Under the pieces are notes generated by a model. It was not told the origin of the DNA, made no database searches, and was given only the letters and a program-made list of their open reading frames with translations. A stretch of 64,000 nt of DNA, from contig JAWMAR010000218.1 in assembly GCA_036785375.1 (NCBI GenBank), positions 3,224,001 to 3,288,000 of the forward strand, in the 5' to 3' direction. This document shows, one piece after another, positions 4,001 through 55,000 of the stretch; within the stretch, counting starts at the first letter, position 1, and every line of letters begins with the position of its first letter. The stretch is from Leucoraja ocellata. Its lineage: Eukaryota. The position numbers and the translations under genes were made by a program.

Positions 4001-7000
4001 TTTGTAACTTTCTAAGTGCCCTTTACGTGGCAACTATTTGCATACCTTGGGTATGTAAGCAAAGAATTTCACTGCGACTTGTCACCTGTGACAATAAAGT
4101 ATTCAATTCAATTCAATTTACTGTAGTGTCAGATGACTGTGAACTTGGGACACACCAGCATACAGTCACAGCAATTCCTGCTACAGGCTGTTCAGGAGAA
4201 GACTCGCACACTTTCATGCCTGTACTGCAGTTACCAGGAGGGATGTCAGCACACTCCAAAAGCTTGATTAACACACACTCAAATCACAAGCATCTTTAGT
4301 TCAATAGGCAGGCCAAGAGGCTATCAACTAGCTCGCGAATAAACAGGGGTAAGAGAAGTAGCAGCAAAAAGAAGGCATACATTATTTTTTAAGCCAGTCT
4401 TTTCCTTTCACTACATTAACAAGGAAGTAATGTGTGCACAAATAGCTTGGAAAATAACTTGAGGAAAGCAGAGAGAGACAGAGATAGTATGATTTAATTA
4501 TAGTTGAATGGCAAGAAATGAGTCCAGTTTTGAGACTATCCTAAAGTACACCAGGAAGTGGCCAACATGCCTCATCATGAGAAAATCATGAACAGAAAGA
4601 ATTGTTTCAGCATCGTACTCTTTGTCACACAATCAGTGCAAAGGGTCAGTGGGGAGTCAGAGCACCAAATCCATCAATTGTGGGGACCACTAAAATTTGA
4701 CGTGTTGATATTTTAAAAAAAGGTGGAAAGAATAATTTCAAAGAAAAACACAAATTCTCATTGCTGAGAAAGGCTAGAGAGCATCTTCTATAAAATGTCT
4801 GTTATTCCCAGGAGATATTACTATTGGTATTTATATTCAGCAGCACATCCCAGCGCAATGATCATTATGGCCAAGAACAACAGCACAAGACATTCTTTCA
4901 GCAGCTTCCTGATCAACTGCGTATGTAGCCATTCACACACGGTTGCAGGTTCAAAATCTTGGCGCTCCATACCCATCATTGGGGGAGTACCCTCACTGCA
5001 CCAAACTCAAGGGTAACTACTAATGGGCAATAAATGGCTTAGAGTCAGCATTATCAATATGCTGAAGATAGACACAAAACGCTGAAGTAACTCAGCGGGC
5101 CAAGCAGCATCTCTGGAGCGAAGGAATGGGTGACGTTTCTGGTCGAGACCCTTCTTCAGACTTCAGACCAAGTTTGAAGAAGGGACTCAACCCGAAACGT
5201 CACCCATTCCTTCTCTCCAGAGATGCTATCTGTCCTGCTGAGTTACTCCAGCATTTTGTGTCTATCTTCGATGTAAACCAGCATCTGCAGTTCTTTCCTA
5301 CACTTATCAATATGCTGAACAGGAGGGGACAGTACTGAGTTAATATTCTACACTGTGGTGTAGAAGCATAAATCAGATTTACTGACATTCATCCGAGTAA
5401 CCATTTAAACCTTTAAAGCAGCAGTGGGTAAACTAGGTGGAGTAACAGTTTCATTGGGGTAGCCCAGATAAAGAAAGGACTTTGATAGCAGTGTGATTTC
5501 TTATTTTCTGCACCAAATCAGCATGGCGTCTCTCTCCACATGTTGTCTCCATAAGAAATTCTCAAAACACTACATTTTCTCCGAAAGGTTAATGTGCCCA
5601 GCAAATAGAACACATTTTCAACTTTATATATTTTTTCGAATCGTAACAGAATCTTTGTTAATTTAAGAAGAAACAAAAAGACTGGCATTAAAGTCAAGTA
5701 AGCGTATTAAAAAAGGAAAACCGAAGCAAACACCGGTACCTTATGTTAAAATCAAAATGAAAGCTCTTTTTCCTTTATTGAAAGCAACCACAAGAAAACA
5801 AAAATCACGTGTTATTACATGGACCAAGCTGCACTCACTAGAGGGTTGATCAGTACAAGAACTTGTCCCTGCCTTGCTAGATACTTATATTCAAGCACTG
5901 AAGACGGTCCAAGTGCACATTGCAAACAGCTCACATTTTTATTAAGTTCATTTTCGCAGAGTTAGGCAAGATCCAAGGCACGGCAAAACAGAGGAAGAGC
6001 TACCAAAAGAATGTACCAAAATTACATTCAAAACATTTATATTTTCAAATGCCCCCTCTACCTCTTGCTTTTGATTCCATTCCTGTTGCCTATTAGAAGC
6101 AGTGGCTTGTACAACAGGTTAACAATTGTATATCAAAGATAGACACAAAGTGCCATAGCAGCTCAACGGGATGGACAGCATCTCTGGCGAAAAAAGGACA
6201 GGTGCCATTGTGGGTTGGGACCCTCCTTCAGACGGTTGATCAGGACTAGATATATCTATCTGCTGAAAAAATGAGACTGATGATCTATAAACTGTATAGC
6301 ATGGTCACTGTGAGATTTTAAACACACATGCCATACTGGGAGGTGGGGTGGAGGAGGGGAGGGCAACTGGATCTGTCTATATTGTCCGAAGTATATGGCT
6401 GTTGCCTTTTAACCTGGATCAAGTTCTGTCAGGCTGCCAGTGGAATAAAGTCATGCTGGACCGATGGGTGGGCAAAACTAAGATATTTAAAACTCTCTGA
6501 ATACAGCTAAATACATCTGATTTTTTGAACTGTCTGAAATTTTCCTTCACACCCAAGCACCCCAACCCCCTCCCCCTCAACCTTCTAACTCATCCTTACA
6601 ATTTTCCTTTTTGGTGAAGCCTTACTCTTTTGGTTTTGTTCGATATGCTCCTGTTAAGTATCCTGAAGCTTTTGATATATTGGAGGTGCAATTCAGAGCA
6701 GGTTGTAAAAATATTCAGTTCTAACAACGTGGGAGTTATTAGCGGAGACGAGCAAGTTAGCATTTTGAAGCAGCTTCAATTTCACTTTTTAATGCTTCAC
6801 TTTAAGAAGCCAATGCATTATCTCTTGACATGCTTGTAATTGATTTCAGTATTAGGTATGTTTGTTTGCTGCCAAGATTCTGCACAAACCAATAAATGCA
6901 GCAAACAGAACTTGTTCACTGCAGACACAGCAAAATGTTAGGTAGGAAGTCCACTTTAACTTCAAGCTCCTGTTATTTTATCCCCCAGCTGTTTTGACAT

Positions 7001-52000: not shown

Positions 52001-55000
52001 TCAAGGAATTGGCAGTGAACCGACTTGCTGGTGTGCTGCATTTTATTTTATTCGTTTTATTCTTAATGTTTTAATGTTTTATGTTTTATTCTTAATGGTT
52101 TACTGTATGTCATAATGTTACTTGCGAGCGGAGCACCAAGGCAAATTCCTTGTATGTGTACATACTTGGCCAATAAACTTATTCATTCATTCATTCAGCC
52201 CATTTGGTGAGGAGATTTTACATTATTGCTGGATAAGGAGTTTCAATTGTGATGATTTCTAGGACAGCCAAGTTTGTGGCTTAGAGAAGAATTTACAGGT
52301 ACATTCCCACACAACTTCTCTCTTGTACTTGGAGGTAGTTTAGATTTAGAGTGTGTACGATGGTGCTGAAAAAGCCTTGATGAGATGGTAGTGCATTTTC
52401 TGAATGATACTGCAGCTTGTTCAATATCAGATGACTGTGGAAATTAATCCTAGCTCAGTTTGCTTACTGTAGATACTGTTGCATTTATCTCTGACACATC
52501 TGAAAAACTGCCGATGATAAATTCATTCTCTGAGTTCAACATGGCAGTGAGCATCCAGAATATAGTTAGCATGTGCCAGAACACCAAAAGCCTTCCAAAA
52601 TATATATCACTAATAAAACTACGGAAGGCATGGAGAACTCCTGTCATCAAGCTTGTGTTCTTAGTACTTTTCTTTATGCCTGTGAAAATTAAGTTCATAT
52701 ACTCCAAGCGGGAGCAGAAATTGAACTTGCAACCATCAAAGTCTCAGTAAAATCCTTGCTACCACTTGAGACTAAGAATCACCCACATTACGATACTGAG
52801 CAAACTGGCCTGCAGTCTACATTGATGGCACTTGTAGAACATGTACTTCAAGATCGTCTGCTAAATGCTGTTCTCCGTAACCAGCATCGAAATCAAAAGC
52901 AGTGCAAAGAATGGAAAATAACTCTGACGTGGCAACAAGGTGAAACAAGTTCTCAAAGAAGTTTGGAATTCCCGCTGACAACCAGAACACCGCTCAGAGC
53001 CACTATTTGAAGGTGGCAAGTGAAGGGCGGCTCAATCATCGTGGATAAAGTAACAACCCAATCTAGCCAAAAAGCCAAGCATTGCCTTCAAACATGAATT
53101 ACATTGATAAGCAGATTGACAGCCACTGTGTTAATTCCAGCGTGACATACTCTCATCCAACACCACCGCCATTCACCAATGAAAGATTGATTTTGTGGAG
53201 TTTCCTTTCACTTGTCAAGATCCTATCCAGTCTTCTCGACACAATAGATAGACACAAAATGCTGGAGTAACTCAGCGGGACTGGCAGCATCTCTGGAAAG
53301 AAGGAATGGGTGACATTTCCAGTTGAGACCCTTTTTCAGACTCAGTCTGCATAAGGGTCTCGATCCGAAACACTGTTGCCTGTCCCGCTGAGTTACTCCA
53401 GCATTTTATGTCTATCTTTAGTATAAACCAGAGTTCCTTCTTACACACTCCTCCACACAATGTTGTGGTGATCTGTCATTGGTAAAAAGAGCAAAAATTT
53501 CAGGTGGTGCATTTTGGGTCCAATTAATTGAACTGCTTTAACTTGGATACTGCTGAGCACCTTGCGTGTTGTTACAGATGCAATTGAAGAGTAAGTTGTT
53601 CTATCATGCTGCCCACATGTATACTGTCATGATAAAGAGCTATCAGGAAGTGAGTTACTCACTACAAGTACTCAGCATGGGTCCTGACCTTGTGGCTGAA
53701 ATATTTGTGACAGGTTTAAGACGTTTCTGGTTATTGGTGATACCCATGGTGTTGATCATGAGCGACTTCCTGTCTGTAAAATCACTGAATATCAAAGATT
53801 ATTGGTCAACCTCTTGTTGCACATGTTGATTATCTTGCACTTACACGGTACGAATATAACTAGCAGTTTATCAATTCAAATTTGATTGTTTTATTTTCTG
53901 AGGAATTAAAAATGGTATTGAACAATCAGCAGCAAATATCCCAGAGTGAGGCCATTAAGTAGTTGCAAACCTAAAGCACTGTTCTGCAACAGTCTTCAAC
54001 CAGAGACGAACTAGCTTTGAACAGGCACACTCACCTTTCTTTGCACCAGCTGTGGCTCTTGCCAAGGAGAGGTCTGTCATTTTAGTATGGGGCCCATGTT
54101 ATCAAGAACAGTCACTGCTTACCCATTCATGTCATTCATGTTTGAAGCAAGAATAAAATAAGATCTGCAGATAAAAGGTGCACTTTTCCAAGACCGTCGA
54201 AAACTTAGTTGTACCAGAACAACTTTGTTGCAGGGAAGGTAGACAAAAATGCTGGAGAAACTCAGCGGGTGCAGCAACATCTATGGAGCGAAGGAAATAA
54301 GCAACGTTTCGGGCCGCAACCCTTCTTCAGACTGATGTGGGGGGGGGGCGGGGAGAAGAAAGGAGAAAGGAAGAGGAGGAGGAGCCCGAGGGCTGAGGGA
54401 GAGCTCAGAAGGGGAGGAGACAGCAAGGGCTACCGGAAATTGGAGAAGTCAATGTTTATGCCGCTAGGGTGTAAACTGCCCAAGCGGAATATGAGGTGCT
54501 GCTCCTCAAATTTCCGGTGGTGCTCACTCTGGCCATGGAGGAGGCCCAGGACAGAAAGGTCGGATTCGGAACGGGAGGGGGAGTTGAAATGCTGAGCCAC
54601 CGGGAGATCAGGTTGGTTAATGTGGACCGAGCGGAGGTGTTCGGCGAAACGATCGCCAAGCCTACACTTGGTCTCACCGAATGTGTTGCAGGGAAGACTT
54701 TTTCCGCAGTATACGTCTTTCTGCAATACAGCCAAGATCTGACTGTCCCAGGGCCCTCTCTGCATTTACTTTCCTCTGCTGTGTGGTTACATTGTGGATT
54801 GAATAAAGTCAGATTAAGAATGGCTTCTGTGACAGTGAGCACATCGTGAGGAAGTGTAGAGTCGTTCGTTCAGCATTTACAACACAATTGTAATTGCCTC
54901 AGCTGCAGTCAGAACAATGATGTTCTTTGAGTTTCATCTCTTGCAAACTGCTTAACTGCCCACCACTGATCACAAACAGATGGGACACAAATGCAGGGGT

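Follow-up and report, generated by a model that had tools for sequence, protein, structure and literature searches.

Minimal hammerhead motifs of an abundant Penelope-like element in the introns of skate PACS2

A stretch of 64,000 nucleotides (nt) from Leucoraja ocellata (contig JAWMAR010000218.1, positions 3,224,001 to 3,288,000; hereafter the window) lies within the PACS2 gene and carries, in its introns, many copies of a small hammerhead ribozyme motif. An initial annotation assigned these motifs to the pseudo-long terminal repeats (pLTRs) of Penelope-like elements (PLEs) and suggested that distant copies in one pre-mRNA could pair and cleave the introns. The locus raises the question of whether the hammerheads act on PACS2 or are simply carried there. 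Our analysis indicates that the motifs are, very probably, the 3' ends of an extremely abundant PLE of Neptune type, present at ordinary density, and that the inserted hammerheads are likely inert passengers. The finding says nothing special about PACS2; its modest value lies in the numbers.

Hammerhead cores and their position in PACS2

The six coordinates named by the initial annotation and its six 'decayed' sites all contain the motif family, within one repeat of about 120 nt. A profile of this pLTR repeat, built from six window copies with one refinement round, gave 27 matches in the window at E<=0.001, 24 of those at 30 bits or more, against a top score of 8.8 bits across 10 Markov-simulated windows. 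More than a dozen copies had been announced for the PACS2 introns; we count 24, and every copy in the window is intronic. Fourteen are solo and ten sit in head-to-head inverted pairs, an arrangement that had been overlooked; no direct pairs occur within 700 nt.

Copy density is 37.5 per 100 kb in the window (24 in 64 kb), 30.5 in neighbouring sequence and 41.0 in other places. For the background, sixty segments of 10 kb were taken from arbitrary positions on the 54 largest contigs; together they hold 246 copies in 600 kb. The pLTR density in PACS2 is ordinary for the genome, and the window is not special. Extrapolation to the genome gives about 1.4 million pLTR copies and about 110,000 intact cores (from 19 in 600 kb), both referring to an assembly that includes duplicated haplotypes.

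Per-position hammerhead scoring found three intact cores among the 22 window copies that span the core region, compared with 19 of 176 in the sample from elsewhere. A sequence-independent descriptor returned the same three window cores and 28 in 984 kb, all within the pLTR family; the chance expectation for a minimal-hammerhead descriptor is 0.0 per window (100 simulations). The intact cores display the features of a minimal type I hammerhead: the CUGAnGA box, an extra base, the G10.1-C11.1 pair, GAAA, a palindromic 15.2-16.2 pair and UH. Six intact or near-intact cores had been proposed. Three of them stand, at 7971-7998(+), 13066-13093(-) and 54303-54330(-), but the other three are broken. 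In the cores at 15349(+) and 23617(-), ACAU replaces the palindrome ACGU, and helix I of the latter is broken too; in the core at 38149(+), G10.1 is mismatched with A11.1 and helix I is likewise broken. Helix III had been described as a palindrome, either ACGU or AACGUU. The shorter form is right (positions 15.1-16.1), but the outer A of the longer one is core residue A14 and its outer U is the cleavage-site base.

The Rfam search proposed as a check found no hammerhead family among six matches in the window (E<=10). The best match, mir-3136 at 23606-23684 (38 bits, gathering threshold 86), corresponds to the hairpin of an inverted pair. The motifs thus lie outside the canonical Rfam type, with no model match and a helix III without loop.

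Pfam Pacs-1 exons lie on the minus strand of the window. One exon is 100% identical to a skate protein named PACS2 across 94% of its length, and the named best protein-search matches for this exon are PACS2; a PDB sequence search with it gave 0 matches. The skate PACS2 protein maps 14 coding exons in the window and further exons on either side. Matches to a PACS2 paralogue, probably PACS1, were seen on C205 and C1424. Since the PACS2 pre-mRNA holds minus-strand cores only, only two intact cores count. The earlier statement that some are intact on the pre-mRNA strand therefore applies to 13066-13093 and 54303-54330 but not to the core at 7971, which is antisense to PACS2. Between the two sense cores lie 41.2 kb and at least eight exons. 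A further intact sense core is found about 49 kb past 54330, 5' of the first mapped PACS2 exon, and is probably in the first PACS2 intron. Across the mapped PACS2 span, 18 copies are sense and 16 antisense, which shows no shortage of sense copies. A second haplotype of the locus (G000:C73:2425001-2505000) is 97-99% identical to the window; the two haplotypes differ by several insertions of 0.2-2.4 kb.

The features of the window that concern PACS2 and the pLTR family are as follows.
910..63583, minus strand: PACS2 gene, from exon mapping; extends beyond both window ends
63425-63583, 59683-59781, 50379-50453, 48926-49063, 44613-44747, minus strand: PACS2 coding exons (approximate)
31215-31271, 25151-25273, 22787-22894, 15566-15721, 13297-13411, minus strand: PACS2 coding exons, continued (approximate)
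10406-10516, 1923-1979, 1216-1260, 910-1065, minus strand: PACS2 coding exons, last in the window (approximate)
5067..5303, both strands: head-to-head inverted pLTR insertion; 16-nt target-site duplication at 5051-5066 and 5304-5319
5132-5159, minus strand: core of the tailless arm of 5067..5303; G10.1-A11.1 mismatch
from 5174, plus strand: core of the tailed arm of 5067..5303; C3 changed to U
6129..6234, minus strand: decayed solo pLTR
7967..8087, plus strand: solo short pLTR of subfamily A, antisense to PACS2; intact core 7971-7998, copy starting at the 5' edge of the core
8418..8455, minus strand: older diverged core, read from the sequence and unscored by the profile; extra base, C15.2 changed to U, possible 4-bp helix I
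9546..9629, plus strand: copy of an older subfamily; G8 changed, 4-bp helix I
13001..13280, both strands: head-to-head inverted insertion; 14-nt target-site duplication at 12987-13000 and 13281-13294, arms 85/94 identical
13066-13093, minus strand: intact core of the minus arm of 13001..13280, on the pre-mRNA strand; predicted to be locked in an arm-to-arm hairpin
15348..15466, plus strand: solo tailed copy; helix III palindrome gone (ACAU)
23558..23776, both strands: inverted insertion with an 11-nt target-site duplication; arms joined in a TCAG-n-CTGA palindrome, each core broken by ACAU
24693..25006, both strands: rearranged inverted pair, plus arm truncated
24710-24737, minus strand: core of the minus arm of 24693..25006; C15.2 changed to U, tail and the element's 5' region before the core
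26605..26716, plus strand: old decayed copy
34186..34680, minus strand: 5'-truncated PLE with broken GIY-YIG frame end, 3' untranslated region (UTR) and pLTR; G8 and G12 of the core changed, 12-nt target-site duplication
36472..36558, minus strand: copy truncated within the core
38145..38260, plus strand: older copy; G10.1-A11.1 mismatch, broken helix I
40740..40829, minus strand: older decayed copy, preceded by its own 3' UTR
42112..42225, plus strand: decayed copy; C3 and G12 changed
53240..53431, both strands: inverted pair, both cores broken
54239..54696, minus strand: 5'-truncated young PLE of subfamily A, tailless end; intact core 54303-54330 on the pre-mRNA strand
56119..56237, minus strand: decayed tailed copy, preceded by an AT-richer 3' UTR

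Identity of the element and anatomy of its insertions

The copy at 54239..54696 retains the last 88 codons of an endonuclease frame (54433-54696), followed by a pyrimidine-rich 3' UTR and the core. This 88-residue fragment gave 145,093 first-look candidates in the genome, and the 20 genome matches with the longest open frames formed a long-frame set. Two were searched against Pfam: L038 matches RVT_1 at 32.9 bits (cut-off 29.6) and L039 at 22.2 bits, under the cut-off, as is a weak GIY-YIG match of L039 (E=0.005). The long frames carry a DKG motif and a CxxxxCxxC linker (CNRKRCNTC or CNRKKCNTC). In the Neptune clade, the linker between reverse transcriptase (RT) and endonuclease is CX2-5CxxC (PMC8557442). 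The same pLTR lies 3' of the RT-endonuclease frame in most of the 20 loci. Among ten loci with long 5' ends, pLTRs are in direct tandem in L143 and L144 (truncated in L141) and inverted in L137, L142 and L146. These loci also show a likely start codon about 130 nt past the cut site. The 3' ends of the pLTRs are bimodal (model columns 100-106 and 122), corresponding to an optional tail of about 35 nt; an inverted 5' copy and a tail are typical of PLEs (PMC8557442).

Frame, pLTR arrangement and tail all fit a Penelope pLTR with a minimal type I hammerhead, as first annotated. Judged from sequence, the element is an endonuclease-bearing PLE, and its linker motif makes it probably of Neptune rather than Nematis type. 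The association of Penelope pLTRs with minimal hammerheads is already published (PMC4209133), and the present case is a skate instance of it. No description of this family was found in the literature searched on Penelope in skates and sharks and on truncated or inverted Neptune copies, a search that did not extend to Repbase or to most subscription journals.

Where neighbouring copies lie within 30 nt of each other, 60 pairs are head-to-head, 5 tail-to-tail and 6 direct. The tail is on exactly one arm in 50 of the 60 tight head-to-head pairs, and a flanking duplication of at least 9 nt is present in 18 of 60 compared with 0 of 60 controls; three inverted insertions of the window have target-site duplications, of 16, 14 and 11 nt. 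Because the tail is on one arm only and the target duplication flanks both, a head-to-head pair is likely a single insertion. Either strand of such a pair is read antisense arm first. About half of the sampled pLTR copies belong to head-to-head pairs; at that rate, the genome as a whole would hold several hundred thousand long hairpins.

These hairpins offer another view of the locus, in which what matters is the long double-stranded RNA of the inverted insertions, open to editing or splicing effects, and not catalysis. The arms are 85/94, 87/99 and 85/93 identical and are predicted to pair fully, and the insertion at 13001-13280 begins only 17 nt into the intron that follows exon 13297-13411. 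The rest of the genome, however, has such hairpins just as often, so PACS2 does not stand out, and we regard this explanation as highly unlikely. The 14-nt target duplication of the same insertion begins at intron position +3, and its hairpin is about 95 bp long. DNA contigs of two other organisms (X16, X18) extend 22-32 nt into both ends of the insertion and stop short of the cores; they suggest that the insertion may be shared with these organisms, although only one record clears the 31-letter threshold for a match.

Short copies tend to begin just before the core. Among 159 young non-inverted copies, 59 begin at -6..0 relative to C3 and 8 more do so with an altered core; 28 begin at +2..+27 and 15 further in, while the upstream extension is 10-35 nt in 4 and more than 35 nt in 45. 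Starts within 2 nt of the cut site are seen in 2 of the 159; by model columns 33-35, the figure is 6 of 390. The ends of the copies are therefore not determined by hammerhead cleavage, which was rejected as the origin of the short ones. In 14 of 20 listed copies with a duplication of at least 8 nt, the duplication ends at -6..+1, which supports the 5' boundary. This edge coincides with TCAGT, at the centre of a TCAG-n-CTGA palindrome (for instance in 7967-8087 and 15348-15466), a motif that we take to resemble the initiator consensus. The pile-up may, tentatively, mark the start of the element's RNA at this initiator-like site. A splice acceptor (pyrimidine tract and CAG before the core, compare D. 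virilis) was considered as its cause and set aside. The short copies have no upstream exon in common, and their target-site duplications stop at this edge, though it may still serve as an acceptor. No description of a 5'-edge pile-up of short copies appeared in the Penelope literature searched, a coverage that leaves out most subscription journals.

Together with published work, these observations suggest a possible cycle. According to the literature, the element protein would nick DNA and begin reverse transcription at two sites bounding the tail, and the hammerhead would cut weakly, as a dimer or helped by this protein. Priming on both DNA strands could then produce the head-to-head pairs. 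If transcription of the element began 3-5 bases ahead of the core, the short copies could be run-off cDNAs of that RNA, a conceivable reading to which we give a little less than even weight. Such a start would limit helix I to about 2-3 bp in these RNAs. If true, the run-off reading would put the hammerhead at the capped 5' end of the Penelope RNA and explain its 2-bp helix I. It would also link the shrunken helix with the promoter, and one step of the Penelope cycle would become open to direct testing.

Conservation, decay and prospects for cleavage

Clustering of 232 long copies, out of 273 bearing a core, gave 8 groups, one of which, a singleton, was dropped. Comparison of the core with its flanks among the seven subfamily majorities, proposed as a test by the initial annotation, leans in its favour, with 10 of 11 core columns invariant and 37 of 60 flank columns (p=0.055). 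Without CpG columns, the figures are 10 of 10 and 36 of 56 (p=0.019). The free position N7 (A/U) and loop II vary between subfamilies. For decay after insertion, we used the four largest groups, leaving out CpG columns as well as any column in which a shared variant exceeded 12%. Core changes then number 97, compared with 101.4 expected from base-matched flank (1835 sites, p=0.68). Core decay is fastest at CpG sites; those of the hammerhead, among them C11.1-G12 and the palindrome of helix III, are changed in 10-35%, a level also seen at CpGs of the flank. The core is constant between subfamilies and decays at the flank rate once inserted; selection therefore acts in the transposon lineage and not in the host. 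The equal decay of core and flank across the family also sets these copies apart from domesticated intronic hammerheads. In the sample, the cores are kept by the transposon, ignored by the host and unused for setting the ends of inserted copies.

Stem II had been said to vary in sequence while keeping its pairing. This argument is weak, as the difference between UUCG and UGCG (UUUU in the second haplotype) is a loop change. The sole family-level change in stem II is one-sided (U-A/U-G at pair 4), as is that at pair 1 of helix I, and no two-sided compensatory change is common in the stems of 143 copies. In the same copies, helix I usually has an A-C mismatch at its third position. The description of helix I as about 2 bp in young subfamilies agrees with most young copies. 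A longer helix I through distal CAUC/GAUG pairing was tried and discarded: its register differs by subfamily and positions 3-4 are mostly mismatched. The older relatives at 8418-8455(-) and 9546-9629(+) possibly have 4 bp; judging from these two copies, helix I may have been reduced to 2 bp in the families whose later expansion was greatest. The earlier caution that monomers may be inactive is well founded, given the 2-bp helix I and the inactive monomers already published (PMC4209133). Short direct tandem repeats running from stem II to the cut site, in units of about 33 nt, were noted at L011:1852-2033 and L043:5034-5191. They would set several GAAACGUU halves side by side.

Could intact copies lying far apart in a single PACS2 pre-mRNA join by way of the ACGU palindrome and cut its introns during transcription? 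Two cores on the pre-mRNA strand pass the descriptor, with the third about 49 kb further 5', and by sequence their halves of helix I and helix III could pair with one another. PLE hammerheads have been published to cleave as dimers (PMC4209133; Lunse et al. as cited in PMC6765202), but in PMC4209133 dimers are weak even when adjacent. A distance of 41 kb, with at least eight exons in it, separates the two cores, and core 13093 sits behind its own near-complement. An upstream intron is usually spliced before a distant downstream partner is transcribed, which counts against such pairing. In nearest-neighbour predictions, the probability of helix II in core 13093 with its upstream inverted arm is 0.00, even with only 5 nt past the cut site made. 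For core 54330 it is 0.00 in all three contexts, with pairing to the downstream pyrimidine run or to upstream sequence. A 13093/54330 hammerhead dimer, held by only 8 intermolecular pairs in three pieces, is predicted at -6.6 kcal/mol and the two monomers at -16.2, an unfavourable difference of about 10 kcal/mol (+9.6). A non-catalytic duplex through helix II is much more stable, at -24.7. Sense copies are not depleted and decay is neutral. Flank-rate decay, predicted misfolding, the 41-kb spacing and the absence of a pile-up at the cut site therefore make distant-dimer cleavage of PACS2 extremely unlikely, and the corresponding proposal of the initial annotation is unsupported. The two sense cores would rather misfold in the pre-mRNA, 41 kb apart, and cut at no relevant rate.

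RNA reads of a related organism (X21, X19), compared at 85% likeness with 10300-16000, come nearly all from repeat copies elsewhere, with depths of thousands on repeats and under 2 in bins of PACS2 exon only or unique intron. No pile-ups of read starts or ends were listed in this region, a weak test (other species, fragmented libraries, 1-5% of runs) that we do not count. In the RNA of this organism, the pLTR repeat yields reads in very large numbers.

Alternatively, the intact solo cores may be silent until a Penelope protein, for instance in germ cells, binds the nearby tail region and switches on cleavage of those host transcripts that contain an intact sense core. The anole element supplies a precedent, as its cleavage requires the protein and not the nuclease site of that protein (PMC11167929), and the skate genome offers both the extrapolated 110,000 or so intact cores and young long frames. 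Against this, the intact cores show no sign of counter-selection. Cleavage of the anole RNA depended on the initial 172 nt of its frame (PMC11167929), and short skate copies have none or part of this segment (54303 being tailless). Inserted copies do not start at the cut site, so cut RNA is rarely copied. We hold such a switch to be very unlikely. The same low weight goes to a latent form of it, in which the protein would fold solo or hairpin-freed cores, 54303-54330 included, and cut host pre-mRNAs. Were protein-switched cleavage real, transposon activity would reshape nascent transcripts genome-wide; any cutting of host transcripts would add a new layer of transposon-driven RNA control.

Several points weigh against our main reading. 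Both sense cores, 13066-13093 and 54303-54330, are intact in the second haplotype, where loop II differs at 54303, though youth alone predicts this. Before filtering, the core of the youngest group is less diverged than its flank (0.024 vs 0.059, p<0.001), a deficit that we read as differences between master elements. The neutrality test is family-wide and may leave room for selection on one or two individual copies. Without the inverted arm, core 13093 is predicted to form helix II, with a probability of about 0.66. The nearest-neighbour model leaves out tertiary contacts and proteins, and it also misses helix II in the young tandem copy L144, whose core is under selection. A predicted misfold therefore means that help is needed and is not proof of inactivity. 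Finally, RT stalling at the C-rich tract, and not an RNA start, may be the cause of the 5' pile-up.

Known hammerhead systems and other elements of the window

Published minimal hammerheads of PLEs are inactive as monomers and weak as dimers, and opposite-strand pairs of them occur (PMC4209133). The skate motifs share with them the CUGAnGA and GAAA boxes, the extra base before G10.1-C11.1, a palindromic 15.2-16.2 pair without loop III, the pLTR position, massive numbers of single truncated copies and close opposite-strand pairs. They differ in helix I, which has 2 bp here and 4-5 bp in most motifs of PMC4209133 (2 bp only in D. virilis), helix II having 4-5 bp here. They also differ in number, with about 110,000 intact cores extrapolated here and about 9,000 in Xenopus tropicalis. 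Cartilaginous fish are not named among the hosts of minimal hammerheads in the portions of the text and supplementary files of PMC4209133 that were searched. With about 1.4 million copies, the skate genome offers a natural experiment on the role of PLE hammerheads.

PAc, a Poseidon element of Anolis carolinensis, shows no cleavage without the PLE protein and no RNA-seq ends at the cut site, and its two RT starts bound the tail (PMC11167929). As in the skate, the hammerhead lies upstream of a two-ended tail, copies occur with and without the tail, and ends at the cut site are not seen. The frame, however, starts inside stem II in PAc and probably about 130 nt past the cut site here, and the clades differ.

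Like the hammerheads of amniote RECK, CTCL and DTNB, those of the window are intronic type I motifs derived from retroelements; the amniote ones are single, canonical and conserved between species (PMC6155905), whereas the skate ones are minimal, multi-copy, young and neutrally decaying. Non-LTR retrozymes are likewise non-coding and PLE-derived, with a type I hammerhead (PMC7229834; 10.64898/2026.07.22.740005). They form direct tandem arrays of hammerhead units, an arrangement not seen within 700 nt in the window, where copies are solo or head-to-head.

Besides the pLTR family, the window contains remnants of other elements. A GC-rich fragment with DUF7041 (E=2e-19) at 20992-21556(-) is presumably the gag-like start of a long terminal repeat retrotransposon. 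Fragments of long interspersed nuclear elements (LINEs) with a common 3' end, which we take to be CR1-like, lie at 57369-59300(+), about 11297-11715, 47870-48495 and 61361-61675; the first has an RVT_1 match at 58022-58459 (E=8e-14). Decayed retroelement-like frames without a Pfam match are present at 45125-46096(+) and 46049-46579(-), the latter resembling, by eye, the N-terminal region of a Penelope RT. A purine-rich simple repeat of GAGTGGGG-like units occupies 11714-12019, adjoining a LINE end.

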